The notes under the pieces are model-generated. The model saw nothing but the letters and a program-made list of their open reading frames with translations, did no database searches and had not been told where the DNA came from. Of a stretch of 26,517 bases of DNA, positions 5,790-26,256 are shown one piece after another. How positions within the stretch are numbered: the first letter of the stretch is position 1; each line of letters opens with the position of its first letter. Both the position numbers and the translations under genes were made by a program. Source of the DNA: a virus (Duplodnaviria > Heunggongvirae > Uroviricota > Caudoviricetes). Where the stretch lies: positions 1-26,517 of the IMG/VR virus record IMGVR_UViG_2778261459_000001. One strand, written 5' to 3'.

Positions 5790-5815
5790 TAATAATTCTC
5801 AACTGTCTGAGGGGA

Positions 5816-5877: not shown

Positions 5878-5914
5878 ACCCGCGAAAAATGAAATTTAAC
5901 CAGGAGTGCCGCAT

Positions 5915-6400: not shown

Positions 6401-6413
6401 AAATCATCGAATC

Positions 6414-8147: not shown

Positions 8148-8158
8148 CTGAGGTAATT

Positions 8159-8341
8159 ATGATCATGCTGATTCTCGCGCCTCTGGTGGGCGTGCTGGGG
8201 GCGCTTTTGCTGGCGTATGGTGCCTGGCTGATTTATCCCCCGGCGGGGTTTGTTGTTGCCGGGGCGTTGTGTCTGTTCTGGTCGTGGCTGGTGGCGCGAT
8301 ATCTCGACCGTACACAGTCGTCTGTCGGCGGAGGTAAATAG
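8159..8341 (+). CDS. small membrane protein (60 aa, two predicted TM helices) between terminase and portal
   Basis: SD GAGGT before ATG 8159. Translation [49 protein letters not shown]... is almost entirely hydrophobic; stop overlaps the portal GTG start. Confidence 0.5.
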
Positions 8342-9582: not shown

Positions 9583-10210
9583 TGTACCGCTGAGTCTGAA
9601 ATCTGTCAGTGACTCCGGTGAGTTTGAAGGGTATGGCTCCGTCTTTGGTGTAAAGGACAGCCACGATGATGTGGTGATGTCCGGGGCATTTGCTGCTTCC
9701 CTGCGGGCGTGGAGTGACAGAAAAGCGTTACCTGCGCTGCTCTGGCAGCACCGCATGGATGAACCCATCGGTGTTTACACCGAAATGAAGGAAGACGATG
9801 TCGGGCTTTACGTCAGGGGGCGGTTGCTCATTGATGATGATCCCCTGGCAAAACGCGCACATGCACACATGAAGGCCGGTTCGTTAACCGGCCTTTCTAT
9901 TGGGTACGTCCTGAAGGACTGGGAATACGACCGGACGAAAGAAGCCTTTCTGCTGAAAGAAATCGACCTCTGGGAAGTCAGTCTGGTGACGTTTCCGTCT
10001 AACGACGAGGCGCGGATCAGCGACGTCAAGAACGCGCTGGCCCGCGGGGAAATCCCCGAACAGAAAAAAATCGAAAGAGTCCTGCGTGATGTCGGACTCT
10101 CCCGTACCCAGGCCAAAGCATTCATGGCCGGGGGCTATGGCGCACTGTCCCTGCGCGACGCTGAGGATGTGGGCTCTGCACTGAATGCACTGAAAAATCT
10201 GAACTTCTAA
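9560..10210 (+). CDS. prohead maturation protease (HK97 family, peptidase U35-like)
   Basis: AAGGA SD 8 nt before ATG 9560, overlapping the portal 3' end; between portal and capsid genes. The track's 9524 start is an alternative. Confidence 0.85.
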   Translation: MQTKQRLDVPLSLKSVSDSGEFEGYGSVFGVKDSHDDVVMSGAFAASLRAWSDRKALPALLWQHRMDEPIGVYTEMKEDDVGLYVRGRLLIDDDPLAKRAHAHMKAGSLTGLSIGYVLKDWEYDRTKEAFLLKEIDLWEVSLVTFPSNDEARISDVKNALARGEIPEQKKIERVLRDVGLSRTQAKAFMAGGYGALSLRDAEDVGSALNALKNLNF

Positions 10211-10224
10211 TCAGGAGAAATACG

Positions 10225-11430: not shown

Positions 11431-11437
11431 TCATTCA

Positions 11438-11457
11438 GGGGCGCGGAACCGCGCCCC
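11438..11457 (+). terminator. GC hairpin GGGGCGCG-GAAC-CGCGCCCC immediately after the capsid gene (attenuator/terminator)
   Basis: Perfect 8-bp GC stem 8 nt after the capsid stop, followed by TGTTCTGA (weak U-tract). Confidence 0.45.
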
Positions 11458-11479
11458 CTGTTCTGACGGGTGAAGAATC

Positions 11480-11680
11480 ATGATCCTGAAACAAGATCTG
11501 AAATGGTCACCGGACGGTATGCGTGTTGAGGTCATTCGGGCCGGTGAGTATGACGACGGGGCGCTTCCTGCCCGGGTGCAGGAGATTGCACTTCAGGCCG
11601 GGTTAGCTGAGCGCGGAACCAATGCAAAAAGCAGTAAAGCGGCAAAAGAGAAAAAAGCCACGACCAGTAAAGAGAGCTGA
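11480..11680 (+). CDS. hypothetical protein (66 aa), Lys/Ala-rich C-terminus
   Basis: ORF in the late operon between capsid and connector genes; weak SD; no family recognised. Confidence 0.4.
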   Translation: MILKQDLKWSPDGMRVEVIRAGEYDDGALPARVQEIALQAGLAERGTNAKSSKAAKEKKATTSKES

Positions 11681-11682
11681 GT

Positions 11683-12006
11683 ATGCTTCTGACAATGGAA
11701 GAGATTAAAGCCCAACTCCGGCTGGATGAGGATTTCGATGCTGATGACCGCCATCTGCAACTGCTGGCCTGTGCGGCGCAAAAGCGGACGGAAACGTATC
11801 TGAACCGGAAGCTCTATGCACCGGATGAATCCATTCCGGACAGCGATCCGGACGGGCTGCACCTGCCGGATGATATTCGTCTGGGGATGCTGATGCTTAT
11901 CAGCCATTTTTACGAAAACCGCTCGTCGGTTACGGAAGTGGAGAAACTCGACATGCCGCAGAGTTTTGGCTGGCTTGTCGGCCCGTACAGGTACTTTCCG
12001 CAATGA
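11683..12006 (+). CDS. head-tail connector (gp6-like)
   Basis: 107 aa in the canonical post-capsid position; start MLLTMEEIKAQLRLD... resembles gp6-type connector/DNA-packaging proteins. Confidence 0.7.
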   Translation: MLLTMEEIKAQLRLDEDFDADDRHLQLLACAAQKRTETYLNRKLYAPDESIPDSDPDGLHLPDDIRLGMLMLISHFYENRSSVTEVEKLDMPQSFGWLVGPYRYFPQ

Positions 12007-12413
12007 AAATTCGTCAGGCGCAGACCAGCGCAACTTACATTCTGCCGGACCCCGGTGAACTGAATAAATGCGTCCTGATCCGCCTGCGGGTGGATATGCC
12101 CGCGGATAACTTTGGCGTGGAGCCTCAATACCCGGTTACGTTCCGGACATGGGCGAAGGTTATCCAGACCAGTGCCACCACCTGGCAGGAAACCGCGCAG
12201 ACCGGGGACGCCATCACCCATTACATCACCATTCGTTACCGCCGGGGGATCACCGCTGATTATGAGGTGGTCTGCGGTGACAGTGTGTACCGGGTGAAAC
12301 GTCAGCGCGATCTGAACGGGGCGCGGCGCTTTCTGCTGCTGGAGTGTACGGAGCTGGGCGAATGTAGGCAGAGTCACGGAGGCAACAATGACGACTTCCT
12401 TTTTGCACGTTGA
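12003..12413 (+). CDS. head closure / head-tail adaptor protein
   Basis: ATG overlaps the upstream stop (ATGA); size and position fit a head-tail joining protein. Confidence 0.65.
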   Translation: MKIRQAQTSATYILPDPGELNKCVLIRLRVDMPADNFGVEPQYPVTFRTWAKVIQTSATTWQETAQTGDAITHYITIRYRRGITADYEVVCGDSVYRVKRQRDLNGARRFLLLECTELGECRQSHGGNNDDFLFAR

Positions 12414-12894
12414 TTTTCAGCAGCCCGCGGAGATGCGCTTTAACCGCGCCCGTGTCCGGCGGGCGTTTGTCACGATTGGTCAGCGTCATATGCGTGATGC
12501 CCGTCGGCTGGTGATGCGCCGTGCGCGGTCGGCACCGGGTGAAAACCCCGGTTATCAGACCGGACGCCTGGCTCGTTCGATTGGTTACATGGTACCCAGA
12601 GCCAGTAAACATCGCCCTGGTTTTATGGCACGTATAGCCCCTAACCAGCGTAATGGAGAGGGAAACCGCCGTATCACCGGTGATTTTTATCCGGCTTTTT
12701 TGTTCTATGGCGTGAGGCGAGGGGCAAAGCGTCGTCGCAGCCATCATCGTGGCGCATCCGGTGGCAGCGGCTGGCGACTGGCTCCACGTAATAACTTCAT
12801 GGTGGAAACGCTTGAAAAGAACCGCAGCTGGACACGCTATTTTCTGGCGCGGGAATTGCGTAAATCACTGAAGCCGGAGCGACGACACAGATGA
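12388..12894 (+). CDS. HK97 gp10-like morphogenesis protein, Arg-rich
   Basis: GGAGG 7 nt before ATG 12388. Basic, Arg-rich 168-aa protein in the head-to-tail joining region. Confidence 0.65.
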   Translation: MTTSFLHVDFQQPAEMRFNRARVRRAFVTIGQRHMRDARRLVMRRARSAPGENPGYQTGRLARSIGYMVPRASKHRPGFMARIAPNQRNGEGNRRITGDFYPAFLFYGVRRGAKRRRSHHRGASGGSGWRLAPRNNFMVETLEKNRSWTRYFLARELRKSLKPERRHR

Positions 12895-13451
12895 AACTGA
12901 CGCCTGTTATTGCTGCACTGCGTGCCCGCTGTCCGTATTTTGAAAACCGGGTTGCAGGCGCGGCCCAGTTCAAAAATCTGCCGGAGGTCGGAAAGCTGAA
13001 ACTCCCGGCGGCATATGTTGTACCGGGTGATGATTCTCCGGGAGAAAACAAAAGCCAGACCGACTACTGGCAGGAGCTGAAAGAGGGTTTCTCCGTGGTT
13101 GTCATACTGAGTAACGGGCGTGATGAGCGCGGTCAGTTTGCCTCGTATGATGTGGTGGACGATGTCCGGCAGATGCTCTTTAAGGCTCTGCTGGGCTGGA
13201 ACCCGGAGGCGTGCGGTAACCCGATTACCTATGACGGCGGCACGCTGCTGGATCTGAATCGTCATGAGCTGATTTATCAGTTCGATTTTTCGGTCATCAG
13301 CGAGCTGACTGAAGACGATACCCGCCATCAGGATGACCTGAACAGTCTGGATGAACTGCAAACGCTGGCGATTGATGTTGATTATCTCGAGCCCGGTAAC
13401 GGGCCTGACGGCGATATCGAACATCACACCGAAATAACCCTTCCTTCCTGA
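12891..13451 (+). CDS. Mu gp37-like tail component (tail completion/terminator-like)
   Basis: 186 aa, start overlaps the upstream stop; lies just upstream of the DUF2635-like/sheath/tube block as in Mu-like tail modules. Confidence 0.6.
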   Translation: MKLTPVIAALRARCPYFENRVAGAAQFKNLPEVGKLKLPAAYVVPGDDSPGENKSQTDYWQELKEGFSVVVILSNGRDERGQFASYDVVDDVRQMLFKALLGWNPEACGNPITYDGGTLLDLNRHELIYQFDFSVISELTEDDTRHQDDLNSLDELQTLAIDVDYLEPGNGPDGDIEHHTEITLPS

Positions 13452-13459
13452 GGATCCTC

Positions 13460-13630
13460 ATGTTTGTGAAACCTGTTAAAGGGCGGTCAGTTCCTGACCC
13501 TGCCCGCGGCGACCTTTTGCCCGCCGAAGGGCGAAATGTTGACGAGAACAACTACTGGCTGCGCCGTGAAGCAGCGGGTGATATCCGGCGCGTGAATAAA
13601 AAGGTGAACACCGATGACGATAAGCTTTAA
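13460..13630 (+). CDS. small protein (56 aa), Mu gp38 / DUF2635-like, overlapping the sheath start
   Basis: ATG 13460 to TAA 13628-13630: MFVKPVKGRSVPDPARGDLLPAEGRNVDENNYWLRREAAGDIRRVNKKVNTDDDKL. Below the track cut-off. Mu-like phages carry a small gene in this position. Confidence 0.5.
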   Translation: MFVKPVKGRSVPDPARGDLLPAEGRNVDENNYWLRREAAGDIRRVNKKVNTDDDKL

Positions 13631-15110
13631 CACCATTCCGTCGAATACGCTGGTTCCGCTGTTTTATGCGGAAATGGATAACCAGGCGGCGAATACTGCA
13701 CAGGACAGCGGAGCATCGCTGCTGATTGGTCATGCCAATAACGGTGCAGAGATTGTTGCCAACAGTCTGGTACTGATGCCGTCGGCAGACTATGCACGCC
13801 AGATTTGTGGTGCGGGAAGTCAGCTGGCGCGTATGGTCGAGGCTTATCGCCAGACTGACCCGTTTGGCGAGCTGTATGTGATTGCCGTTCCTGAATCCAC
13901 AGGCGCGGCGGCAACGGTTACGCTGACGGTGACCGGGGAAGCAACCGAAAGCGGCACGGTGAATGTCTATGTGGGACGTACCCGCGTGCAGGCTCCGGTG
14001 ACCAACGGCGATAACGTCACGACGATTGCCAGCAGTATCCAGGATGCCATCAATGCCGTTCCGGCCCTGCCGTTTACAGCTTCATCTTCGGCTGGTGTTG
14101 TCACGCTGACCGCGCGTCATAAGGGGCTTTGCGGGAATGAAATTCCTGTCAGCCTCAATTACTACGGCTTCGGTGGGGGTGAAGTGCTGCCTGCGGGCGT
14201 ACAGATTGCCGTGGCGACGGGGACCGCCGGAACGGGCGCTCCGGTTCTCACCGGCGCGGTGGCTGCAATGGCGGATGAGCCGTTTGATTATATCGGTCTG
14301 CCGTTCAACGACACGGCCTCCGTTAACACGCTGGTGACCGAGATGAACGATACCAGCGGTCGCTGGAGCTATGCGCGTCAGCTGTATGGTCATGTGTATA
14401 CGGCAAAGACCGGTACGCTGTCAGAACTGGTGACCGCAGGTGACCAGTTTAACCAGCAGCACATTACCCTGGCGGGGTACGAAAAAGAGACCCAGACGCC
14501 TGCCGACGAGCTGGCGGCAAGCCGTACCGCCCGCGCAGCGGTGTTTATTCGCAACGATCCGGCACGTCCCACGCAGACCGGTGAGCTGGTGGGTATGCTG
14601 CCTGCGCCGAAGGGGAAACGGTTCACGATGACTGAACAACAGACCCTGTTGTCTCATGGCGTGGCAACGGCGTATGTCGAAAGCGGGGTACTGCGCATTC
14701 AGCGTGATGTCACCACGTACAGGAAAAACGCTTACGGGGTTGCGGATAACAGCTACCTCGACAGTGAGACGCTGCATACCAGCGCGTATGTACTGCGCAA
14801 ACTGAAATCCGTCATTACCAGTAAGTACGGGCGTCACAAGCTTGCCAGTGACGGTACCCGCTTTGGTCCCGGTCAGGCAATTGTCACCCCGGCGGTGATC
14901 AAAGGGGAACTGCTGGCAACCTACCGTCAGCTTGAGCGTGCGGGGATCGTGGAAAACTACGAACTGTTTAAGCAGTACCTGGTTGTGGAGCGTGATGCCA
15001 GCGATCCGAACCGTCTGAACACGCTGTTCCCGCCTGACTATGTTAACCAGTTGCGTGTCTTTGCCGTGGTTAACCAGTTCCGTCTTCAGTATTCAGAGGA
15101 GTCCGCATAA
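13614..15110 (+). CDS. contractile tail sheath protein (Mu gpL-like)
   Basis: 498 aa; size and position before the tube gene; start MTISFNTIPSNTLVPLFYAEMDN... is typical of Mu-like sheath proteins. Confidence 0.9.
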   Translation: MTISFNTIPSNTLVPLFYAEMDNQAANTAQDSGASLLIGHANNGAEIVANSLVLMPSADYARQICGAGSQLARMVEAYRQTDPFGELYVIAVPESTGAAATVTLTVTGEATESGTVNVYVGRTRVQAPVTNGDNVTTIASSIQDAINAVPALPFTASSSAGVVTLTARHKGLCGNEIPVSLNYYGFGGGEVLPAGVQIAVATGTAGTGAPVLTGAVAAMADEPFDYIGLPFNDTASVNTLVTEMNDTSGRWSYARQLYGHVYTAKTGTLSELVTAGDQFNQQHITLAGYEKETQTPADELAASRTARAAVFIRNDPARPTQTGELVGMLPAPKGKRFTMTEQQTLLSHGVATAYVESGVLRIQRDVTTYRKNAYGVADNSYLDSETLHTSAYVLRKLKSVITSKYGRHKLASDGTRFGPGQAIVTPAVIKGELLATYRQLERAGIVENYELFKQYLVVERDASDPNRLNTLFPPDYVNQLRVFAVVNQFRLQYSEESA

Positions 15111-15466
15111 TGGCCCGTATCGGGGGAACCTGTTATTTCAAAATTGACGGTCAGCAGCTATCGCTGACCGGCGGCATTGAGGTGCCCATGAACAGGACGG
15201 TCAATGATGACATCATCGGCCTGGACGGTTCAGTGGACCGCAAGGAAACTCACCGTGCGCCTTATGTCAAAGGGAGCTTCAAGGTGCCGAAGAATTTTCC
15301 GGTGAGCAAAATCACCTCGTCTGATGAGATGACCATCACTACCGAGCTGGCGAACGGTCAGGTCTATGTATTGTCGTCCGCCTGGCTGCACGGCGAAGCG
15401 AACCATAATGCCGAAGAAGGCACAGTCGATCTTGAGTTCCACGGTGAAGAAGGGGATTACCAGTAA
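15110..15466 (+). CDS. tail tube protein (Mu gpM-like)
   Basis: 118 aa, TAATG overlap with the sheath gene; canonical sheath-tube pair. Confidence 0.85.
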   Translation: MARIGGTCYFKIDGQQLSLTGGIEVPMNRTVNDDIIGLDGSVDRKETHRAPYVKGSFKVPKNFPVSKITSSDEMTITTELANGQVYVLSSAWLHGEANHNAEEGTVDLEFHGEEGDYQ

Positions 15467-15735
15467 TGAAAGAGCTTGAGTTAAAGAAACCGATTATTGC
15501 TCATGGCGAGACACTCTCCGTACTGGAGTTTGATGAACCCACCGGGAAGGATGTCCGCGAGCTGGGGTATCCCTACCAGATGAATCAGGATGAGTCCGTC
15601 AGACTTCTGGCGCATGTGGTGTCGAAATACATTGTGCGGCTGGCGAAAGTGCCGCAAAGCTCTGTCGACCAGATGTCTCCGGCAGACCTGAATGCAGCGG
15701 CGTGGCTTGTGGCCGGTTTTTTCCTCCAGGCCTGA
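15466..15735 (+). CDS. tail assembly chaperone (upstream frame of a frameshift pair)
   Basis: 89 aa, TAATG overlap with the tube gene, directly upstream of the tape measure gene. Confidence 0.7.
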   Translation: MKELELKKPIIAHGETLSVLEFDEPTGKDVRELGYPYQMNQDESVRLLAHVVSKYIVRLAKVPQSSVDQMSPADLNAAAWLVAGFFLQA

Positions 15736-15884
15736 CGGCTGAATACCTCACTGATCGCTTCTTTGACTGCGCCAGTTACTGGCGCATTAATCCCTTCGAA
15801 TTGCTGAATATGCCGATCAGTGAAATTCCCTTGCTGGTCAGTCAGGCAAACAGGATAGAGCAGGAGAAACGCACACATGGCTGA
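15717..15884 (+). other. putative programmed -1 frameshift: slippery heptamer T_TTT_TTC (15717-15723) and -1 frame extension to 15884
   Basis: In the chaperone frame the codons are GGT TTT TTC 12 codons before the stop. The -1 frame is open from the slip site to TGA 15882-15884, which overlaps the tape measure ATG (15877), giving a fusion ending ...RIEQEKRTHG. Confidence 0.5.
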
Positions 15885-17712
15885 ATTTGAGCTTAAGGCG
15901 TTGATCACCGGTGTCGACAGACTTTCTCCCGCGCTGTCGAAAATGCAAAAGAAAATCCGGGGATTTAAACGCCAGGCGGAAGAAGCGTCACAGGGTGGGC
16001 TGGCGCTTGGTGGCGGACTGGCAGCGGGTCTGACGCTTTCCCTGAAATCTTATGCCGATCAGGAAAACGCCGCCACCGGGCTGAAAGTCGCCATGATGGA
16101 TGCGAACGGCGAGGTTGGAAAGAGCTTTCAGGACATCAATAAACTGGCTATTGGCCTGGGTAACCAGCTACCCGGTACAACGGCTGATTTCCAGAACATG
16201 ATGCAGATGCTGGTGCGTCAGGGGATCCCGGCAGAAAACATTCTTGGTGGTGTGGGTAAAGCGACAGCTTATCTTGCGGTACAACTGAAAAAAACACCGG
16301 AAGCGGCTGCTGAGTTTGCTGCAAAGATGCAGGATGCTACCGGAACGGCGTCAGAAGACATGATGGGGCTGTTCGACACTATCCAGAAGGCGTTTTATCT
16401 GGGCGTTGACGATACCAACATGTTGTCCTTCTTCACTAAAACCAGTTCTGTTCTGAAGATGGTGAACAAGGACGGTCTTCAGGCTGCACAGAGCCTTGCC
16501 CCCATCAGCGTCATGATGGATCAGATGGGGATGAACGGGGAGTCGGCAGGTAATGCCCTGCGAAAAGTTATCCAGTCCGGATTAAGTGTTAAGAAAATCA
16601 GGGACGTCAATAAAGTCATGGCTCGCCAGAAACTCGGGGTACAGCTCGATTTTACTGACGGCAAAGGAAGTTTTGGCGGTCTTGATAACATGTTCAGGCA
16701 ACTGGCAAAGTTGCGAAAACTGACCGACGTTAAGCGAACAGGCGTACTTAAGGCAATATTTGGTGATGATGCTGAAACCCTTCAGGTGGTCAATGCTCTG
16801 ATCGATAAAGGAAAGGATGGTTACGATCAGATCCAGCAGAAGATGAATAAACAGGCCAGCCTGAATAAACGTGTTCAGGCACAGCTTGGTACGCTGTCCA
16901 ACCTGTGGGAGGCAATGACGGGGACCGCAACTAACGGTCTTGCAGCTATTGGCGGCGCATTTTCTGGTGACGCTAAAAATATCACGCAATGGCTGGGGGA
17001 GTTGGGGGAAAAATTCACGAAGTTTGCGGATGAAAATCCCCGGGTTATTCGCGGCGTCGTCGGGCTTGCTGCCGGTCTTGCGATTCTGAAACTGGGATTG
17101 ATGGGCGTGGGCAGTGCCATCAGTATTGTCAGCAGGATCATGTCGATGACGCCGATTGGCATGATTGCGACGGCGATAGCCCTGGCTGCGGGATTAATTA
17201 TCACTAACTGGGATGTTGTCGGACCTTATTTTAAGAAACTCTGGGAAACCATTGGTCCTTATTTTGAGGCTGGCTGGGAACTCCTTAAGAAAGTTTTTGC
17301 CTGGTCGCCGCTGGGGATGGTGATCAATAACTGGGGGCCGGTTGTTAAGTGGTTTCAGGATATGTGGGACAAGCTGAAGCCAATTATTGAGTGGTTTACC
17401 GACAGTTCCGGTGACACGGTCGATGCCATTAACTCTGCGCAGTGGGGCGCGGGTGCTTATGATGCTTATGGGACGGGAATACCGGCGCGGGGATACACAC
17501 CTTATCCGGTGGTGGATCCGGCTCAGTCAAACAACGCCTCCGGTGCCACAGGCCCGAATCCCTTCATGATTAACAAAGCTTCTGCGCCAAAAGTTGATGG
17601 TGAGATCAAGGTCTCTTTTGTGAATTCGCCTCCGGGTATGCGGGTTATGGAAACGCGATCCAGCGGTTTTGATGTCAGCCATGATGTTGGCTATACGCGC
17701 TTTGGCAGGTAA
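15877..17712 (+). CDS. tail tape measure protein
   Basis: 611 aa with Ala/Gly-rich and hydrophobic segments and a Trp-rich C-terminal region; follows the chaperone frameshift pair. Confidence 0.9.
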   Translation: MAEFELKALITGVDRLSPALSKMQKKIRGFKRQAEEASQGGLALGGGLAAGLTLSLKSYADQENAATGLKVAMMDANGEVGKSFQDINKLAIGLGNQLPGTTADFQNMMQMLVRQGIPAENILGGVGKATAYLAVQLKKTPEAAAEFAAKMQDATGTASEDMMGLFDTIQKAFYLGVDDTNMLSFFTKTSSVLKMVNKDGLQAAQSLAPISVMMDQMGMNGESAGNALRKVIQSGLSVKKIRDVNKVMARQKLGVQLDFTDGKGSFGGLDNMFRQLAKLRKLTDVKRTGVLKAIFGDDAETLQVVNALIDKGKDGYDQIQQKMNKQASLNKRVQAQLGTLSNLWEAMTGTATNGLAAIGGAFSGDAKNITQWLGELGEKFTKFADENPRVIRGVVGLAAGLAILKLGLMGVGSAISIVSRIMSMTPIGMIATAIALAAGLIITNWDVVGPYFKKLWETIGPYFEAGWELLKKVFAWSPLGMVINNWGPVVKWFQDMWDKLKPIIEWFTDSSGDTVDAINSAQWGAGAYDAYGTGIPARGYTPYPVVDPAQSNNASGATGPNPFMINKASAPKVDGEIKVSFVNSPPGMRVMETRSSGFDVSHDVGYTRFGR

Positions 17713-17733
17713 TGAAAAATTAATCTGTTAATG

Positions 17734-17759
17734 AGTCCCACTCCGGTGGGATTTTTTAT
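17734..17759 (+). terminator. hairpin AGTCCCAC-TCCG-GTGGGATT followed by TTTTTAT, just after the tape measure gene
   Basis: Stem-loop plus U-tract 22 nt after the tape measure stop; lies inside the track's upstream extension of the next ORF, supporting the later start at 17773. Confidence 0.45.
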
Positions 17760-17772
17760 GTACGGAGTTTAT

Positions 17773-19101
17773 ATGACGTGGAAAGACAGACTTCAGGACG
17801 CGTCATTTCGCGGTGTGCCGTTTAAGGTTGAAGAAGAAAGTACGGGAACCGGTCGTCGTGTGGAAACGCACGAATACCCGAACCGCGACAAACCCTATAC
17901 CGAAGACCTGGGGAAAATCACTTTCCGCCCGTCCATCACGGCTTATGTGGTGGGAGATGACTGCTTTGACCAGCGCGATCGGCTGATTGACGCGCTGAAT
18001 AAACCCGGTCCCGGCACGCTTGTCCATCCGACTTACGGTGAGCTGAAAGTCTGTGTTGACGGAGAGGTTCGGGTCAGCACATCGAAGAGTGAAGGGCGTA
18101 TTGTCCGCTTTGACCTGAAGTTTGTCGAAGCGGGAGAACTCTCTTACCCCACTTCAGGTGCGGCGACGGCGCAGACGCTGATGTCATCCTGTTCTGCACT
18201 GGATGACTGCATCAGTGACAGCTTCAGCGGTTTCAGTATCGATGGCGTGGCGGATTTCGTGCAGAACGACGTTATTGGTAATGCCAGCATAATGCTGGGG
18301 TATGTTTCTGATGCGATGAAAGTGGTGGATTCTGCCGTATCGGATGCCGCCAGGCTGTTGCAGGGGGATATCTCGGTACTTCTGCCGCCGCCATCGTCAG
18401 GCAAAAATTTCGTTGAGCAGGTGCAGAAAATGTGGCGTACCGGGAAACGCCTTTATGGTAACGCCAGCGACCTGGTCACCATGATCAAAACGCTTTCCGG
18501 TGTCAGCCTCGGCAGTGATCTGCAACCGCGCGGCGTCTGGAAAACGGACAGTAAAACCACCGCTACGGCGACGCAGCAGCGTAACGTGGTTGCCAGCACC
18601 CTTCGTACGACCGCAATCAGCGAAGCGGCGTATGCCGTCACCCGATTGCCTGCGCCAACAACTTCCGCGGTGATGCAGAATGCCGCAGTGGGGCAGGCAA
18701 CAACAGCTGCACAGAGCACCGGCTGGCCTTCCGTCACGCATCCGGCACTGAACAATGCACCGGCGGTGAAAAACACGGTTGACCTGCCGACGTGGGAAGA
18801 ACTGACTGACATTCGCGACACACTGAATACGGCAATTGATAAGGAGTTGTCCCGTACAACCAGTGATGCGCTGTTTCTGGCGCTGCGCCGGGTGAAAGCA
18901 GATCTGAATGCGGATATCAACACGCGCCTTGAACAGTCTGCACGGATCATTCAGCGCACACCGGATGAGGTTTTACCCGCGCTGGTGCTGGCGGCGACCT
19001 GGTTTGATAACGCGGCGCGTGACGCGGACATTATCCGGCGTAATGCCATTACGCATCCCGGCTTTGTGCCGGTGATCCCTCTGAAGGTGCCAGTGCAATG
19101 A
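17773..19101 (+). CDS. Mu gpN-like DNA circularization / tail protein
   Basis: GGAG 6 nt before ATG 17773 (MTWKDRLQDASFRGVPFKVEEE...); first gene after the tape measure gene as in Mu-like tails. Confidence 0.8.
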   Translation: MTWKDRLQDASFRGVPFKVEEESTGTGRRVETHEYPNRDKPYTEDLGKITFRPSITAYVVGDDCFDQRDRLIDALNKPGPGTLVHPTYGELKVCVDGEVRVSTSKSEGRIVRFDLKFVEAGELSYPTSGAATAQTLMSSCSALDDCISDSFSGFSIDGVADFVQNDVIGNASIMLGYVSDAMKVVDSAVSDAARLLQGDISVLLPPPSSGKNFVEQVQKMWRTGKRLYGNASDLVTMIKTLSGVSLGSDLQPRGVWKTDSKTTATATQQRNVVASTLRTTAISEAAYAVTRLPAPTTSAVMQNAAVGQATTAAQSTGWPSVTHPALNNAPAVKNTVDLPTWEELTDIRDTLNTAIDKELSRTTSDALFLALRRVKADLNADINTRLEQSARIIQRTPDEVLPALVLAATWFDNAARDADIIRRNAITHPGFVPVIPLKVPVQ

Positions 19102-20177
19102 ACGACAATGTCACGCTACGGGTAAATGGCCGGGAGTGGAATGGCTGGACATCGGTGCGCATCGGTGCCGGTATTGAACGGCTGGCGCGGGATTTCAGTG
19201 TGGAGATCACCCGCCAGTGGCCGGGTGATGAGGGTATCACCACGCTTCAGCCGCGCATTAAAAACGGTTCAAAAGTGGAGGTGCTGATTGGTGATGAGCT
19301 GGTGATCACCGGCTGGGTGGAGGCGACGCCCGTTCGTTACGATGCCCGTTCGGTCAGCACCGGTATTGCCGGACGCAGTCTGACCGCTGACCTGATTGAC
19401 TGTGCAGCCGAACCGACACAGTTTAACGGACGATCGCTGGTACAGATAGCGCAGGCGCTTGCTGCGCCTTTCGGCATTGAGGTGGTGAACAACGGTGCGC
19501 CGTCGGGTGTTATTCCTGACGTCCAGCCCGATCACGGCGAAACGGTGATTGAGGTGATCAACAAAATACTCGGTCAGCAGCAGGCACTGGCTTACGACGA
19601 CCCGCACGGCAGGCTGGTGATTGGCGGTATTGGCTCAACGCGGGCACATACCGCGCTGGTACTCGGGGAAAACATCCTTTCCTGTGATACGGAGAAGAGT
19701 ATCCGGGAGCGGTTTTCAGTTTACCAGGTGGCGGGGCAGCGTGCCGGAAACGACGATGATTTCGGTGAGGCCACCACCACCGCGCTGCGGGCCCGCACAG
19801 AGGACGCATTTATTGCCCGTTACCGTCCGATGTATATCAGGCAGACAGGGCAGGCCACGGGGGCAGGCTGTATTGCGCGTGCTGACTTTGAAGCCCGGCA
19901 ACGGGCGGCGCGGACGGATGAAACCACCTATGTGGTGCAGGGCTGGCGACAGGGTAACGGTACGCTGTGGCAGCCCAACCAGCGGGTGATTGTCTTTGAT
20001 CCGGTCTGTGGTTTCGACAATACCGAACTGCTTGTTTCGGAAGTCACGTTTACTCAGGACCAGAACGGCACCCTGACGGAAATCCGTGTCGGCCCGCCTG
20101 ATGCTTATCTGCCTGAACCCGAAGCCCCCGGCGCGCGGAAAAAGAAAAAAGCCAGAGTACAGGAGGACCCGTTCTGA
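19098..20177 (+). CDS. Mu gpP-like tail/baseplate hub protein
   Basis: 359 aa, ATGA overlap with the upstream gene; position and size match. Confidence 0.8.
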   Translation: MNDNVTLRVNGREWNGWTSVRIGAGIERLARDFSVEITRQWPGDEGITTLQPRIKNGSKVEVLIGDELVITGWVEATPVRYDARSVSTGIAGRSLTADLIDCAAEPTQFNGRSLVQIAQALAAPFGIEVVNNGAPSGVIPDVQPDHGETVIEVINKILGQQQALAYDDPHGRLVIGGIGSTRAHTALVLGENILSCDTEKSIRERFSVYQVAGQRAGNDDDFGEATTTALRARTEDAFIARYRPMYIRQTGQATGAGCIARADFEARQRAARTDETTYVVQGWRQGNGTLWQPNQRVIVFDPVCGFDNTELLVSEVTFTQDQNGTLTEIRVGPPDAYLPEPEAPGARKKKKARVQEDPF

Positions 20178-20725
20178 TGAGGACGATTGAAGCCATGCAG
20201 CGACAACTCCTCGGCCTGATTGGGCGGGCCGTGGTGAAAAGCATCAGTGCCGCCACGAAATGTCAGACCGTGGATGTGTTCCTGATTGCCGGTGAACCCA
20301 AAGCCGGGGTTGAACATCTTGAACCCTACGGTTTTACCGCAAGGGCAAACAGCGGTGCGGAAGCGGTGGTGTTGTTTCCGGATGGCGACCGTTCTCATGC
20401 GGTGGTTGTTACGGTGTCGGACCGTCGCTACCGCCTGAAAGGGCTGCAGACGGGTGAGGTGGCTGTCTATGACGATCAGGGGCAGTCCGTGACGCTGACC
20501 CGGGAGGGGATCGTGGTGGACGGTGCAGGTAAAACGATCACGTTTCGCAATGCACCTGAAGCACGTTTTGAAATGGACCTGGAAGTGACAGGACAGGTGA
20601 AAGACCTGTGCGACTCCGGCGGCACCACCATGTCAGCGATGCGGCTTGCCTATAACGGGCATAGTCACAGAGAGAACGGTCAGGGCAGTAACACCGACAA
20701 ACCGGATAAAGCGATGGAGGCATGA
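20177..20725 (+). CDS. baseplate assembly protein V (spike, Mu gp45-like)
   Basis: 182 aa, start overlaps the upstream stop; fits gpV-type proteins by position and size. Confidence 0.8.
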   Translation: MRTIEAMQRQLLGLIGRAVVKSISAATKCQTVDVFLIAGEPKAGVEHLEPYGFTARANSGAEAVVLFPDGDRSHAVVVTVSDRRYRLKGLQTGEVAVYDDQGQSVTLTREGIVVDGAGKTITFRNAPEARFEMDLEVTGQVKDLCDSGGTTMSAMRLAYNGHSHRENGQGSNTDKPDKAMEA

Positions 20726-21150
20726 TGGAACTGTGGCTGACGGTGAACGGTAAACGCACCTGCGCCAGCGCACCGCTGGATCCGCTGACCCGCGCCGTGG
20801 TGATTTCCCTGTTTACCTGGCGGCGGGCGGAGCCTGATGACAACGCCGACGTCCCGATGGGATGGTGGGGGGATACCTGGCCTGCGGTACAGAATGACCG
20901 TTACGGCTCCCGACTGTGGCTGCTTCAGCGCAGCAAACTGACCAATCAGCTGGTGCAGACGGTAAGGGGGTATATCCGCGAATGCCTGCAATGGATGATT
21001 GATGATGGCGTGGTGTCCCGTATTGATCTGGATATCCGCCGCACCGGGATTAATGAACTGGGTAACAGTATCACTCTCTGGCGTCGTGACGGACCGGTAA
21101 TGATTTCTTTTGATGATCTGTGGAGTGCGATAACGCATGGCGGACAGTGA
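20722..21150 (+). CDS. baseplate protein (Mu gp46 / gpW-gp25-like)
   Basis: 142 aa, ATGA overlap; between the V-like and J-like genes. Confidence 0.75.
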   Translation: MMELWLTVNGKRTCASAPLDPLTRAVVISLFTWRRAEPDDNADVPMGWWGDTWPAVQNDRYGSRLWLLQRSKLTNQLVQTVRGYIRECLQWMIDDGVVSRIDLDIRRTGINELGNSITLWRRDGPVMISFDDLWSAITHGGQ

Positions 21151-22195
21151 ATTTCAGCGCCCGACGCTGGCAGAAAATATCAGTATGCTCCGTAACGATT
21201 TATTCGCCAGGCTGGACGTCAGCGACACGCTCCGGCGCATGGATGAAGACGTGCGGGCAAAGGTGTATGCGGCGGCGCTGCATACGGTTTACGGTTACAT
21301 CGATTATCTGGCAATGAACATGCTGCCTGACCTGTGCGATGAGTCCTGGCTGGCGCGACATGCTGCGATGAAACGGTGTCCGCGCAAGGGGGCCACGGCT
21401 GCCAGCGGGTATATGCGCTGGGAAGGTGTCAGCGATGGCCTGAAGGTGACTGCCGGGAGCGTGATTCAGCGCGATGACCTGGTTCAGTACACGGCAACTG
21501 CTGATGCAACCAGCTCCGGTGGTGTCCTGCGCGTGCCGATCACTTGCTCAAGTGCAGGCGCGGTCGGTAACGCTGACGACGGTACGGCATTAATCCTGGT
21601 CACGCCGGTTAATGGTCTGCCCTCTTCCGGCGAGGCAGATACCCTGACAGGTGGATTTGATACTGAAGAGCTGGAAACGTGGCGCGCCCGCGTCATTGAG
21701 CGGTATTACTGGACGCCTCAGGGCGGGGCTGACGGGGACTATGTCGTCTGGGCTAAAGAAGTGCCCGGCATTACCCGCGCATGGACATACCGACACTGGA
21801 TGGGAACGGGGACTGTCGGTGTGATGATTGCCAGCAGTGACCTGATTAACCCCATTCCGGAAGAATCAACGGAAACGGCGGCAAGACAACATATCGAGCC
21901 ACTGGCCCCGGTGGCAGGCTCTGATTTGTATGTATTCAGGCCGGTGGCGCACAAAGTGGATTTTCATATCCGCGTGACGCCGGACACACCGGAAATACGG
22001 GCTGCCATCACCGCGGAGTTGCGTTCATTCCTGCTGCGTGATGGTTATCCGCAGGGAGAGCTTAAGGTATCGCGTATCAGTGAAGCGATTTCCGGTGCGA
22101 ACGGGGAATACAGCCATCAGTTGCTTGCACCGGCGGACAATATCTCCATTGCAAAAAATGAACTGGCGGTACTGGGGACGATTTCATGGACGTGA
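21137..22195 (+). CDS. baseplate J-like protein (Mu gp47-like)
   Basis: 352 aa; canonical position and size. Confidence 0.85.
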
Positions 22196-22770
22196 CAAAC
22201 GATGATTATATCCGTCTGTTGTCGGCACTGCTGCCCCCCGGTCCGGCATGGTCAGCCAGCGATCCGGCGATTGCCGGTGCGGCACCTTCATTAACCCGTG
22301 TTCATCAGCGTGCGGATGCCCTGATGCGGGAGCTGGATCCGCGCACCACCACCGAACTGATAAATCGCTGGGAGCGTCTGTGCGGCCTGCCGGATGAATG
22401 CATTCCGGCGGGAACGCAGACCCTTCGCCAGCGTCAGCAACGGCTGGATGCGAAGGTTAACCTGGCGGGCGGTATCAATGAGGATTTTTACCTTGCTCAG
22501 CTTGCTGCTCTGGGCAGACCAGACGCCACCATCACGCGATACGACAAAAGCACTTTCACCTGCTCATCGGCCTGTACTGACGCGGTGAATGCGCAGGAAT
22601 GGCGGTATTACTGGCAGGTCAACATGCCAGCCGCCACCAACACCACCTGGATGACATGTGGCGATCCCTGTGATTCCGCACTGCGTATCTGGGGCGACAC
22701 CGTTGTCGAGTGCGTGCTTAACAAACTCTGCCCTTCGCATACCTACGTAATTTTTAAATATCCGGAGTAA
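22186..22770 (+). CDS. Mu gp48-like tail protein (DUF2313-like)
   Basis: 194 aa between the baseplate J-like and tail fiber genes. Confidence 0.75.
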
Positions 22771-22773
22771 TCC

Positions 22774-23787
22774 ATGCATCGTATAGACACGAAAACCGCG
22801 CAGAAGGATAAGTTCGGCGCGGGTAAGAACGGTTTTACCCGTGGTAACCCCCAGACCGGCACACCTGCCACCGATCTGGATGATGACTACTTTGACATGT
22901 TGCAGGAGGAACTTTGCAGCGTGGTGGAGGCATCCGGTGCCAGCCTGGAGAAGGGGCGGCACGACCAGTTACTTACCGCGCTTCGTGCGCTGCTGTTAAG
23001 CCGCAAGAATCCGTTTGGCGATATCAAATCGGATGGCACGGTGAAAACGGCTCTCGAAAACCTTGGTTTATCAGACGTTTTACATAAGGGAAATTTTGGT
23101 GTCGGGAGTAGGCTGCAAGGTAGTGCAGCCGGGAATAGCCATGTCGGTGGATTCATGTATGAACCATATCAGGCGAACAATCTTTACCCGCTAAGTGTGG
23201 CTTTAATGCAGGCAGCAGGCCCGACATCGACAGAATGGGCGCAGCTGGCTGTTTCATATGGTGGGGCATTCAGAGCTTTCCTTGGGCGACAGACTTATAA
23301 TGGAAATCCTGAAATCAGTGAGTTGTACCATGACCAGCGTAAGCCGTCTGCGTCGGATGTTGGTGCCCAACCTCTGAATGCAACTCTCACCACTCTTAGT
23401 GGAAAAGATGCGGCAGGATTAAGGAGCGTCCTAGGGCTTGGAACAACAGCCACAAGAAACGTAGGTACGGGAGCGTCACAAATACCTGATATGAGTTCGT
23501 TTTTAAGCGGATCTACAGCATCAGCTTTTTGGTACAAACTTCCTGGTGGCATGGTGGTGATGGGGGGTAATGCATCTGGAATCGCCTCTGGAACTGCAGG
23601 TAATGCGGTCTTCTTCCCAGTGCCATTCCCAAATGTTTGCTCAAGCGTTGTCGTGACATTAGTCAGCAACGGGTTATATGCCGACACAGTCTCGTTTAAT
23701 ACATATATCCCTGGAACTGACCGTTTTAACGTTTATACGAATACAAGCGGCACGTACGCTATTTATTACCTGGCGTTTGGGAGTTGA
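22774..23787 (+). CDS. tail fiber protein with conserved N-terminal anchor and divergent, lower-GC C-terminal domain
   Basis: 337 aa. N-terminus [55 protein letters not shown]... is the conserved baseplate-attachment region of this fiber family. DNA composition becomes AT-richer from about 23040 onward. Confidence 0.8.
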
Positions 23788-23788
23788 T

Positions 23789-24205
23789 ATGAACAATTAC
23801 GTATGGTCAGCATTACATGTTTCATTTTTCCCTAAGGCGATGTTGCAAGATTATGAATCTGCCGGATGGAATCTTTCCGATGTGGTGGATGTTGTTGATG
23901 ACATTTTTCAAACATACAGATCAATGCCACCAGAAGGTAAAATTCTTGGGGTTGTTGATGGCATGCCTGCATGGATTGACAAGCCGCCAGTGCCAAATAG
24001 CGTGTTGCTTTCAGACGAACTTGCGCGGCTTGCATCAGAATATAAAAATGACAGAGTTCAATTGAATGACGCATACGTTGCGGCAATGGTAAGCGATGGT
24101 CCATTAGAGCAAACTAAGCAGCAGGCGGTGAGGGATCAAATTGTTCAAAGAAAATCTCAGTACACAGCAGATATAGCTGCAGCAAAATTAAAATATCCCA
24201 TTTAA
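23789..24205 (+). CDS. tail fiber assembly protein (Tfa/Caudo_TAP-like)
   Basis: From ATG 23789 (MNNYVWSALHVSFF...): motifs ...AGW..., PPEGK and DGMPAWIDKPP typical of tail fiber assembly chaperones; directly follows the fiber gene. Confidence 0.7.
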   Translation: MNNYVWSALHVSFFPKAMLQDYESAGWNLSDVVDVVDDIFQTYRSMPPEGKILGVVDGMPAWIDKPPVPNSVLLSDELARLASEYKNDRVQLNDAYVAAMVSDGPLEQTKQQAVRDQIVQRKSQYTADIAAAKLKYPI

Positions 24206-24215
24206 GGTGGACATC

Positions 24216-24380
24216 ATGGAAACACAATCAAACGAAGAACAAAAACAGAGCCAGCAACAGCAGGATTCTACCGTAAAATTCTGTCCGATATGTGGCTCAA
24301 CAATGCATCAGCAAGATTATCTGAATGGGAAATGGTGGTTTTGTGATGATGAAGAATGCGGGTTTTTTGAGCCCGTCTAA
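24216..24380 (+). CDS. small zinc-ribbon protein (54 aa, CPICG...x16...CDDEEC)
   Basis: AAGGTGG SD 5 nt before ATG 24216. METQSNEEQKQSQQQQDSTVKFCPICGSTMHQQDYLNGKWWFCDDEECGFFEPV has four Cys in two pairs. Below the track cut-off; followed by a terminator. Confidence 0.5.
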   Translation: METQSNEEQKQSQQQQDSTVKFCPICGSTMHQQDYLNGKWWFCDDEECGFFEPV

Positions 24381-24402
24381 AGTATTTGTTTGCAGGAATA
24401 AA

Positions 24403-24433
24403 AGCCCTCTCTGGAGGGCTCATATTTATTTTG
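24403..24433. terminator. bidirectional terminator (AGCCCTC-TCTG-GAGGGCT flanked by T-runs on both strands)
   Basis: Between the convergent zinc-ribbon gene (+) and acyltransferase gene (-); followed by CATATTTATTTTG on the plus strand and TTTATTCC on the minus strand. Confidence 0.5.
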
Positions 24434-25508
24434 CGTATTTCTTTCTAAACCCAAGAAATGGCTTTTCAATCAACTCAAAACATATCTTAGAAAAGATAAG
24501 AATTGCAGGTAGTAAAATCAAAAAATTAATGACAGCATTAACATTATCATTGTCGATAAACCTCGGAACTCCAAATGTTTTATGGAATGAGTAAAGAACC
24601 ACACCATGCAATATATATTCAGAAAAGCTTACCTCACCAAGTTTAGATAATCCATTATCTATAATGGCAGGTATTTTTATGCTTGACGATAAGTAAGTAA
24701 ATACAAAAATACCCCACATGCAAGCCTCCAGATATGATAAAGAACTTACATATGGTGTTGGAATGTACCATAAACCCTCAGATCTAAGTGTTAAAAGAGA
24801 AAAGAAGACAATTGCAGAACTGGCGATGATAAAGATCGGATTAGCGAATTTATCCTTATGGTTTATATATAGATATCCAAACACCATCCCAATTAATAGC
24901 TGATCAAATCGACCAAGCATTGTTAAGTAGTAATAATGATTGTTCAGATATGAATCCGACCCTAATTCCCCACCATAGATTGTAACGATCATGGTTCTCC
25001 AGGCAAGCCAAAAAAGAGACAGATACACAATATACTTCACACCATATCTGTTAAGAAAAAGAGCTAGGAAAGGAAATATTAAGTAAAATTGAAATTCTAC
25101 TGCTATAGTCCACGTTTGCCCGAAATGAGCCAGCAACGGTGATGTTTGCAAATTCGAGAAAAGGAACAAGGATAAAGCATCAGAAAATGTGGCAGTACCT
25201 CTAGATAGAGACATGGCGGTAATCCATGCTACAGAAAGGAGTGGGAAGATGCGAATAAATCTATTGAAGATAAAAGGCTTATAAGAAATATCCTTTTTTC
25301 CGCCATTCGATATGATGGTGAATAGAAATCCACTAAGCACCAAAAATAGCGTAACTCCAGTATCACCAGCAAGCATGAAATTTATAAATGGATTGTTCGA
25401 TTTCTTTCCTCCGAACGCCGTATAAGAATGAACAAAAACAACAAATGTTGCTGCAAAAAAACGAAGGTGGTCAATCCTTGACAGGTATTGTGAGTTTAGA
25501 CTTTTCAT
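24426..25508 (-). CDS. integral membrane acyltransferase, family 3 (Oac/OafA-like O-acetyltransferase)
   Basis: 360 aa, about 10 predicted TM segments. N-terminal signature RIDHLRFFAATFVVFVHS (Arg...His motif of the acyltransferase-3 family). Gene is strongly AT-rich relative to the flanking phage genes and is divergently oriented. Confidence 0.85.
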   Translation of the reverse strand: MKSLNSQYLSRIDHLRFFAATFVVFVHSYTAFGGKKSNNPFINFMLAGDTGVTLFLVLSGFLFTIISNGGKKDISYKPFIFNRFIRIFPLLSVAWITAMSLSRGTATFSDALSLFLFSNLQTSPLLAHFGQTWTIAVEFQFYLIFPFLALFLNRYGVKYIVYLSLFWLAWRTMIVTIYGGELGSDSYLNNHYYYLTMLGRFDQLLIGMVFGYLYINHKDKFANPIFIIASSAIVFFSLLTLRSEGLWYIPTPYVSSLSYLEACMWGIFVFTYLSSSIKIPAIIDNGLSKLGEVSFSEYILHGVVLYSFHKTFGVPRFIDNDNVNAVINFLILLPAILIFSKICFELIEKPFLGFRKKYAK

Positions 25509-25628
25509 CTTTATCCACTTGAAAATGAAAAAATATTAGCATGTAAGACGATGTCGCGCCACGGATCATTAGTCGTAAAAAGCACGAGTTTTTTGTTGCA
25601 TGCACTGATTGACGCCATCGATCAATAA

Positions 25629-25648
25629 TACTGTATGCACATACAGCT
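25629..25648 (+). promoter_or_regulatory. LexA (SOS) box TACTGTATGCACATACAGCT
   Basis: CTGT-N8-ACAG palindrome (CTGTATGCACATACAG) matching the E. coli SOS-box consensus TACTGT(AT)4ACAGTA, about 20 nt upstream of the UmuD'-like start; GGAGGTGG SD at 25655-25662. Confidence 0.6.
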
Positions 25649-25665
25649 TACATTGGAGGTGGTCC

Positions 25666-25953
25666 ATGGGGTTCCCGTCGCCAGCGGCAGACCACATTGA
25701 AGAGCACATATCACTCGATAAGCGCCTTATCGCACATCCTTCTTCCACGTATATGATGATATCCGGAACGACATACCTTCGAGCCGGAATCATGAAAGGA
25801 GCCATGCTCATCGTCGACTCATCGCTGACACCAAAAGATGGCTTCCTGCTTGTCTGTGCGGTTGATGGTGAGTTCAGGATCATGCGCTACAGGACACATC
25901 CTCAACCTTGCCTTGAAAACCCTGAAAATGGGAGGGGGGAGCCGTTACTGTAA
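25666..25953 (+). CDS. UmuD'-like (HumD-like) protein, S24 peptidase fold with substituted catalytic dyad; C-terminally short
   Basis: From ATG 25666: [38 protein letters not shown]...[22 protein letters not shown]... aligns to E. coli UmuD from Gly25 ([37 protein letters not shown]...LLIVDS...AAVDGEF). The UmuD GDSM Ser position is Thr (GTTY) and the Lys position (VKKL) is Met/Arg (IMRY). About 20 C-terminal residues are missing relative to UmuD'. Confidence 0.65.
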   Translation: [95 protein letters not shown]

Positions 25954-26027
25954 GTATCCCGCATAATCGTGCCATTCATATTTAGAGATCATCCGGCATA
26001 ATCAATCTGGCAACAAAGGAGATCGCT

Positions 26028-26169
26028 ACGCATAAAGCCCGTTTTACTGAGCATCAGATCATCGCTGTGATTAAGTCAGTTGAAGCCAGACGAACCGTTA
26101 AAGATGTCTGCCGGGAGGCCGGTAACTCTGAAGCCACCTACTACAACTGGAAGTCCAGATACGGCGGCA
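26028..26169 (+). mobile_element. IS3-family (IS407-group-like) transposase OrfA 5' fragment, start codon degenerate (ACG), truncated after the HTH
   Basis: AAGGAG SD, then ACG where ATG is expected. Translation (T)[46 protein letters not shown] matches the OrfA HTH motif of IS3-family elements from memory (MKKRFTEQQII...SFYTWRAKFGGME). Similarity ends abruptly at about 26170. Confidence 0.5.
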
Positions 26170-26256
26170 TGGAAGACATATCGGGTATTGCTGAACCGGG
26201 TTGATACATCAGTAGCACCGAATATTGAGTGGCCTGCAGAACCAGGCACAATGTAA
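26164..26256 (+). pseudogene. tail fiber assembly protein (tfa) 3' remnant
   Basis: Frame +1 translates to ...[30 protein letters not shown], the conserved C-terminal signature of Tfa proteins (lambda Tfa ends ...[29 protein letters not shown]). No corresponding N-terminal part upstream. Confidence 0.6.

Follow-up and report, generated by a model that had tools for sequence, protein, structure and literature searches.

The AT3-only acyltransferase gene

The stretch of DNA analyzed here (hereafter the window; 26,517 nucleotides, IMG/VR record IMGVR_UViG_2778261459_000001, Caudoviricetes) carries a gene for a family-3 acyltransferase, hereafter AT3. The open reading frame (ORF) called on the window spans positions 24426..25508 on the minus strand, starts with an ATG and encodes 360 amino acids (aa), with the N-terminus MKSLNSQYLSRIDHLRFFAATFVVFVHS. 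The Pfam family PF01757 (Acyl_transf_3) covers residues 11–340 with a score of 106 bits (gathering score, 31 bits; E = 2.6e-30) and profile positions 3–321 of 326. This is the sole Pfam domain in the protein; neither an SGNH nor any other periplasmic domain is fused to it, and the architecture is thus AT3-only. Stand-alone precedents for this architecture are Oac, OacB–D, Lag-1, and WbaK. The PHROG family phrog_3333, annotated as "O-acetyltransferase," aligns with residues 6–359 (E = 1.4e-44), while no NCBIfam model matches the protein at E ≤ 0.01. None of the sources consulted by sequence search provided a functional name. The identical protein sequence is found on 198 contigs, labeled "acyltransferase family protein [Escherichia]," and the gene is present in 14 of 5,426 complete E. 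coli genomes. Within this genome set, the AT3 segment is 100% identical to its complete-genome match, and the best match of the window overall is 98.3% identical over 21 kb.

The first-pass annotation of this DNA had described a 360-aa polytopic membrane acyltransferase encoded on the opposite strand directly after the tail fiber genes. The PF01757 match, the ten predicted helices described below, and the ORF order of the window agree with this description, and the sequence motif that it quoted is present in the ORF. The end coordinate that it assigned to the gene, 25560, lies 52 bp beyond the start codon, and the additional stretch corresponds to the 5' untranslated region and the putative promoter. 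The GC content of the gene is 35.1% (32.4% at third codon positions), compared with 55.7% in the phage structural genes (5500–23000) and 51.5% in the whole window. The strong compositional contrast reported earlier therefore holds, although the estimate of roughly 30% was somewhat too low. Low GC recurs in the genes that occupy the same slot in related phages, such as oacD (31%) and gtrV (33%). Since low GC is characteristic of genes of this class in general, and the nearest ortholog is separated by a dS of 0.46 under strong purifying selection, the proposed "recent" foreign origin is not supported.

The lysogenic-conversion slot

The assignment to an SfV-like prophage is confirmed by blastn: window positions 5848–8086 and 11682–23069 are 96.6–96.9% identical to Shigella phage SfV, in the same gene order. 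The homology to SfV ends at 23069, inside the tail fiber gene (22774..23787), and the non-SfV segment holds the distal fiber, its chaperone, a 54-aa ORF, and AT3. The baseplate and tail fiber segment (20200–23069) is 97.3% identical to phage SfII. In SfV, the fiber-assembly gene is followed by a terminator, gtrV-gtrB-gtrA on the minus strand, and int. In SfII, the order is fiber, chaperone, terminator, an acyltransferase gene on the minus strand, an insertion sequence (IS), gtrII-gtrB-gtrA, and int. The SfII acyltransferase is OacD, which was experimentally found to 6-O-acetylate the N-acetylglucosamine (GlcNAc) of the O-antigen (PMC9558356, PMC8952252). Other SfV-type phages carry McrA and an invertase, or an invertible fiber segment, in this slot. 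AT3 lies between the tail fiber module and the int/attP end of the prophage, opposite to the late operon, and the intact relative in E. coli FORC_082 confirms this placement. The layouts of SfV and SfII, together with the other slot occupants, show that the earlier designation as a lysogenic-conversion slot is correct and has published precedent. AT3 is accordingly a moron that encodes a stand-alone acyltransferase and occupies the conversion slot of an SfV/SfII-type prophage.

Catalytic motifs, predicted fold, and selective constraint

Conservation was assessed in an alignment of 48 relatives with identities down to 36%. The invariant residues include Asp13, His14, His27, Arg83, Arg86, Trp133, Thr134, Glu138, His301, and Glu348, and Arg16 is near-invariant (at least 90% conserved). 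Arg16 and His27 constitute an R/K-X10-H motif, located within helix 10–31 (transmembrane helix 1) of the structural model, and align with Arg11 and His22 of Oac. The RXXR motif (N82-R83-F-I-R86) is located at the start of helix 3; both of its arginines are invariant, and they align with Arg73 and Arg76 of Oac. Mutagenesis demonstrated that the R/K-X10-H motif is essential in OafA (R14/H25) and OacB (R47/H58), as is the RXXR motif in Oac (R73/R76) and OacB (R116/R119) (PMC8952252, PMC9558356, PMC9833829).

An AlphaFold (AF2) model computed from the alignment (pLDDT 86.7, pTM 0.88) comprises 10 long helices and short loop helices. This model predicts that the protein adopts the ten-helix transmembrane fold of the AT3/TmAT type. 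A Foldseek search of the PDB gave no match at E ≤ 0.001, and its only meaningful matches were HGSNAT (probability 0.94, TM-score 0.43) and GWT1 (probability 0.89). Both proteins have been placed with AT3 in one superfamily, TmAT (PMC12423673). The PDB sequence search returned nothing relevant, so that neither sequence nor fold searches turned up a solved AT3 structure, and a Foldseek search of the BFVD viral structures gave nothing meaningful for the model. Comparison with the 93% identical ortholog, located in an Escherichia-type Mu-tail prophage remnant (locus L002), yielded a dN/dS of 0.077 at dS = 0.46.

Putative regulatory elements flanking the gene

A GC-rich hairpin with an 8-bp stem and a 4-nt loop (24402..24421) is located between the convergent genes, 4 nt past the AT3 stop codon, and a terminator-like site was called there on both strands. 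The hairpin is probably a bidirectional intrinsic terminator. Annotated terminators occur in a matching arrangement after oac in Sf6, after oacD in SfII, and after gtrV in SfV. On the opposite side of the gene, a putative extended –10 element, TGcTAATAT (25533..25541, minus strand), was read by eye approximately 25 nt upstream of the ATG. The 45 nt preceding the ATG, this element included, show no differences among five orthologous loci whose remaining sequence is approximately 85% identical. With its conserved motifs, confident model, low dN/dS, own terminator, and conserved putative extended –10 element, the AT3 gene looks functional as judged from its sequence.

Phase variation of the Dam/OxyR type, as in the gtr and oafB operons, was considered and rejected. 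The GATC sites at 25620–25623 and 25564–25567 are not conserved in the loci of the 93% ortholog, and two GATC sites in approximately 230 nt upstream of AT3 are close to chance expectation. A palindrome, CTGT-N8-ACAG (25631..25646), lies in the divergent intergenic region approximately 20 nt upstream of the neighboring humD' gene and is conserved in all five loci. It resembles the LexA box (SOS-box consensus).

Relation to characterized enzymes

The closest characterized sequence is OacA (Oac) of Sf6, which is 28% identical over residues 13–166 only (E = 5e-7) and is detected by a hidden Markov model (HMM) of the AT3 subfamily at E = 1.2e-11. Similarity to Oac is thus detectable, but full-length orthology is not. 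OacD gave an E-value of 1.2 by BLASTP and was not significant with the subfamily HMM. In an orthology comparison that covered OacA and OacD among the characterized O-antigen enzymes, AT3 qualified as an ortholog of neither, lacking full-length similarity sufficient for the transfer of a substrate. Nor is AT3 assignable to the E. coli housekeeping AT3 enzymes (OpgC/MdoC and WecH) in a comparison that covered the OpgC sequence and the NCBIfam models: OpgC was likewise not significant with the HMM, and the context of AT3 is a prophage rather than the chromosomal backbone. A DNA search of the phage collection gave no match to AT3. The corresponding tblastn search gave only weak N-terminal matches to "O-antigen acetylase" genes of Pseudomonas phages and missed Oac at E ≤ 1e-3.

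OacD resembles AT3 in phage lineage, slot, strand, layout, AT3-only architecture, length (349 versus 360 aa), and GC content (31% versus 35%). In contrast, no sequence similarity between the two is detectable, which makes OacD a positional analog rather than an ortholog, and the host O-antigens differ, namely the S. flexneri backbone for OacD and E. coli O5 for AT3. Oac of Sf6, which 2-O-acetylates rhamnose I, is also an AT3-only protein and shares the D..R..H, TM2-3 (transmembrane helices 2–3), and RxxR motifs with AT3. Its gene is convergent with the tailspike gene, has its own promoter and terminator, and lies beside int/attP, whereas its carrier is a P22-like podovirus and not a Mu-tail myovirus as in the window. 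The GtrABC modules of SfV, SfI, SfIV, and E. coli prophages of the CPS-53 type occupy the same slot, include a low-GC serotype-specific gene (gtrV, 33%), and have the same presumed role in O-antigen modification, serotype conversion, and superinfection exclusion. However, they belong to other protein families and transfer glucosyl groups via undecaprenyl-phosphate glucose, whereas AT3 proteins transfer acyl groups from acyl-coenzyme A (acyl-CoA). In the intact relatives, AT3 is found in addition to gtr and not as its replacement. OafA and OafB of Salmonella and other O-antigen acetyltransferases of the AT3-SGNH type share the AT3 domain and the R/K-X10-H and RXXR motifs (PMC7448272, PMC9833829). 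OafB is prophage-borne and affects phage sensitivity (PMC9558356). Unlike these enzymes, the window protein lacks a fused SGNH domain, and none of the neighboring genes in the window encodes an SGNH protein.

Genomic contexts of the homologs

Ten homolog groups with identities from 93% to 36% were inspected. The first-pass annotation had named as a counterindication best homologs that are chromosomal enzymes acting on peptidoglycan or other non-lipopolysaccharide substrates; instead, nine of the ten contexts are a prophage, a prophage remnant, or a phage-plasmid. In seven of the ten, the AT3 gene is directly convergent with a gene for a tail fiber, tailspike, or fiber chaperone. The ortholog at locus L002 is convergent with chaperone and fiber genes and has gtrABC nearby. 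The same convergence with chaperone and fiber is observed in a Salmonella phage-plasmid and in a Citrobacter koseri prophage. The relatives in Salmonella P22-like prophages are convergent with the tailspike gene, those in Pseudomonas prophages with a tail protein gene, and that in a second E. coli prophage with the gene for a 784-aa tail protein; the Morganella prophage relative adjoins a 716-aa tail protein. The Aeromonas relative is a moron of a P2-like prophage located away from the tail genes, the Enterobacter relative resides in a prophage remnant, and the Erwinia amylovora relative (approximately 40% identity) is a lone chromosomal gene.

The viral contigs of IMG/VR extend this pattern. 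Forty-nine loci encode AT3 relatives, and the nearest 3' neighbor is convergent in approximately 26 of the 31 full-length relatives. Of the 25 PHROG families that these neighbors match most frequently, every annotated one is a tail fiber, tailspike, or fiber-assembly family, and the Pfam domains of the neighbors include Gp53-like_C, Caudo_TAP, Tail_spike_N, and pectate-lyase. This recurrent pairing with a receptor-binding gene provides the main argument that AT3 modifies the surface receptor of the phage.

In the Pseudomonas prophages (L017–L019; approximately 6650–11340 in L017), a 46% identical AT3 relative is located between a 400-aa GDSL/SGNH protein and the tail protein. The tail protein (732 aa) likewise carries a GDSL/SGNH domain, and three of the IMG/VR neighbors also have a GDSL domain. 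The arrangement could represent an acetyltransferase split into AT3 and SGNH proteins, or an acetylase coupled to a tailspike that deacetylates. It is relevant to the question of whether an AT3-only enzyme requires a partner with an SGNH domain.

The tail fiber–AT3 cassette

The window is collinear with locus L002 from 23139 to 25943 at 85% DNA identity. At the protein level, the identities are 78–79% for the fiber and chaperone (79% for the chaperone), 93% for AT3, and 82–87% for the S24 peptidase encoded beyond it. The tail fiber (337 aa; 22774..23787, plus strand) matches phrog_1396 (E = 1.9e-84) and contains a Gp53-like_C domain at residues 255–336. Its N-terminal region of approximately 98 aa is common to SfV orf21, while the distal receptor-binding part, from approximately 23139, belongs to the cassette. 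The tail fiber assembly chaperone (138 aa; 23789..24205, plus strand) was identified by PGAP annotation in a near-identical genome and by phrog_188 (E = 1.7e-15). The following 54-aa hypothetical ORF (WP_021548946.1; 24216..24380, plus strand) contains a zinc-ribbon-like CxxC...CxxxxC pattern (CPICG...CDDEEC); it has no PHROG or PADLOC match, and its Pfam Zn_ribbon match is weak and below the cut-off. This ORF is conserved at the end of the fiber module with and without AT3, and it is the last gene common to the AT3-less relatives, as the homology to YPE10 and MB10 stops at 24380.

Upstream of AT3, on the plus strand, lies a C-terminally truncated HumD/UmuD'-like S24 peptidase gene, humD' (25666..25953; phrog_811, UmuD-like, E = 4e-36; PF00717). 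It is cut at an IS junction at approximately 25945, and the homology to the 129-aa version in L002 ends at 25943. No umuC partner is found near humD'. PADLOC matched none of AT3, the 54-aa ORF, and HumD' to known anti-phage defense. The adjacent IS/transposase fragment (25949..26174) is 94.7% identical to the L002 IS and carries the annotation of an incomplete transposase joined to a tail fiber assembly fragment. This fragment marks the deletion that removed the gtr cluster, the integrase, and the att site from the window copy. The full layout is retained in FORC_082: fiber, chaperone, ORF, AT3, S24 peptidase, transposase, a gtrC-type gene, gtrB, gtrA, intS, and tRNA-Arg. In YPE10, the same fiber module is followed directly by gtrC-gtrB-gtrA-intS-tRNA-Arg, with no AT3. 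The AT3-less layout of YPE10 identifies AT3 and humD' as an optional insert, whose left edge coincides with the stop codon that ends the 54-aa ORF (24380). AT3 thus shows the presence/absence polymorphism among otherwise near-identical phages and the atypical GC content of a moron. In E. coli, it moves together with the distal tail fiber and chaperone as one cassette.

The proximity to gtr in the intact layouts, where AT3 lies next to gtrC-gtrB-gtrA as in SfII, raises the question of whether AT3 works only with GtrABC, for example by acetylating a Gtr-added glucose, and would therefore be inert in the gtr-deleted window. Salmonella OafB was indeed first described in a gtr operon (PMC9558356). 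We regard such a dependence as very improbable. The window, S1-INA-02-A, GPEC1031, and a pig-associated clone of 10 genomes all retain an intact AT3 with no gtr nearby, and in other phages the majority of relatives lack a gtr neighbor. Furthermore, the gene has its own terminator and a conserved upstream region, humD' and the IS separate it from gtr, and OacD of SfII acetylates the backbone GlcNAc rather than a Gtr-added glucose (PMC9558356).

In the pig-associated clone, the fiber–chaperone–ORF–AT3–S24' remnant alone survives, within a DLP12-like cryptic prophage, and AT3 is intact. The remnant (L092; NZ_CP075462.1, 3634533–3649933) is fused directly after rusA, and all other SfV-type structural genes are absent. 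The genomes of this O5 clone contain, in addition, a further partial copy of the fiber module.

Other regions of the prophage

Two regions of the window, 8087–11681 (portal, protease, and capsid) and 1–5437 (porin and lysis), have no blastn match to SfV, while the flanking terminase and tail genes are approximately 97% identical. These unmatched regions look like ordinary phage mosaicism. A second low-GC ORF on the opposite strand (1747–2889, minus strand; 380 aa) encodes a Gram-negative porin (PF00267, E = 2e-151; phrog_410) and is located upstream of the lysis genes, which start at approximately 3633. It is presumably a classic lambdoid phage porin moron of the Lc/NmpC type, in which case the prophage would carry two surface-altering conversion genes.

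Association with serogroup O5

Among the complete E. coli genomes searched (n = 5,426), 35 contain the wzy gene of serogroup O5, and 13 of the 14 AT3 carriers belong to this serogroup (Fisher p = 3.7e-29; p = 2e-9 with the pig clone collapsed to one genome). The carriers fall into no fewer than three or four backgrounds, of pig (China), human (Switzerland), and chicken-meat (Korea) origin, together with a further human isolate. The Korean chicken-meat carrier differs in its gnd, wzzB, and his alleles. A review of E. coli O-antigens describes the O5 unit as containing ribofuranose (Ribf), with an N-acetylgalactosamine (GalNAc)-PP-lipid primer, and confirms nothing further.

A gene for an undecaprenyl-diphosphate-GlcNAc 4-epimerase is located just upstream of galF in the O-antigen loci of both GPEC1031 (L039), an AT3 carrier of serogroup O11, and S1-INA-02-A (L035). 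Its occurrence in O5 and O11 carriers implies a GalNAc-initiated O-unit in both. A GalNAc-initiated O-unit common to O5 and O11 is, as a clue to the substrate, speculative.

Proposed mechanism and alternatives

By analogy with characterized AT3 enzymes, we consider it probable, with moderate confidence, that AT3 transfers an acetyl group from cytoplasmic acetyl-CoA via its pore to a sugar of the O-antigen on the periplasmic side, thereby altering the serotype and phage adsorption. As a lysogenic-conversion moron, the gene would be transcribed in the lysogen under the control of its own promoter. By analogy with Oac, OacB, and OafA/B, acetyl-CoA may enter the pore of the 10-helix bundle from the cytoplasm; Arg16 and the R83-XX-R86 motif would hold the CoA 3'-phosphate there, and His27 in helix 1 would handle the acetyl group. 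A hydroxyl group on a surface-glycan sugar would then receive the acetyl group at the periplasmic face. The most probable acceptor would be the O-antigen repeat unit, with the O5 repeat unit as the most likely one in E. coli. Such acetylation may alter the epitope and hinder the adsorption of phages that use this O-antigen, including the carrier phage. The family, architecture, motifs, slot, cassette structure, selective constraint, and the associations with phages and serogroup are shown by the sequence analysis; acetyl as the acyl group, the O-antigen as the acceptor, and superinfection exclusion are steps that we infer.

Several observations weigh against this mechanism. The consensus promoter scan called no promoter upstream of AT3, so that expression in the lysogen is likewise inferred. 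A single clone accounts for 10 of the 13 O5 carriers, and the distal fiber module is nearly as restricted to O5 as AT3 (16 of 19 genomes). Since the fiber module is equally linked to O5, the association belongs to the fiber and AT3 cassette as a whole, and it may reflect the host range of the phage or clonal descent rather than the substrate of AT3. A literature search found no report of an O-acetylated O5 antigen. The homologs of known substrate are all too distant from AT3 for a transfer of function, as OacA is 28% identical over half the protein only, while OacD and OpgC are undetectable; with characterized homologs this distant, the substrate is not transferable by homology. In addition, the carrier GPEC1031 is O11 and holds an identical, intact AT3.

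The last two points are also compatible with AT3 acting on another surface or periplasmic glycan, such as the enterobacterial common antigen, the lipopolysaccharide core, colanic acid, a K capsule, or the osmoregulated periplasmic glucans. The payoff could then be the same, namely receptor masking, or a different one. AT3 proteins use many acceptors (PMC9558356), the O-antigen cluster genes of the O11 carrier differ from those of O5, and the Erwinia amylovora relative stands alone on the chromosome. Nevertheless, we judge this alternative unlikely. The comparison with OpgC was not significant and no NCBIfam model matched, while the placement beside receptor-binding genes and, in intact copies, gtrABC is systematic. 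The enrichment in O5 is strong, and all characterized phage-borne AT3 proteins named in a review of the family act on the O-antigen (PMC9558356).

A further point against the proposed mechanism is that the gene decays in some lineages. FORC_082 carries an internal stop codon, OZ546963 and two IMG/VR contigs (L044 and L045) have 5' truncations, and the 90% identity cluster of AT3 contains many truncated members. Together with the right end of the prophage, which has been scrambled by IS activity, this decay is consistent with AT3 being a passenger in a degenerating prophage end, with no present function in the host and a conservation that reflects recent spread. A passenger role is very improbable, however, given the dN/dS of 0.077 accumulated over a dS of 0.46, the retention of all catalytic motifs, and the perfect conservation of the 45 upstream nucleotides against a background of approximately 85%. 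Moreover, the ORF is intact in 12 of the 14 carriers, including the minimal remnant of the pig clone.

Implications

AT3 is a new, uncharacterized member of a well-known class of phage genes. The understanding of the class itself is unchanged, as its principle was already established by Oac (Sf6), OacD (SfII), and OafB (BTP1). If AT3 acetylates O5, it would create an unrecorded chemical variant of a serogroup isolated from pigs, poultry, food, and humans, with effects on serotyping, on the design of glycoconjugates, and on phage host range. The single gene may matter less than the general pattern, given that AT3 genes convergent with a receptor-binding gene occur in many prophage types. It is conceivable, although we lean somewhat against it, that AT3 defines an uncharacterized clade spread by phages (phrog_3333), whose members are exchanged between phages of unrelated tail types together with a matching receptor-binding fiber or spike, and that the E. 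coli cassette is specific to O5, creating an undescribed O-acetylated O5 variant that affects serotyping and phage susceptibility. The recurrent convergence, together with the co-inheritance of AT3 and distal fiber seen here, would represent a simple genomic rule by which phage receptor-binding proteins can be paired with the glycan modification that blocks them.

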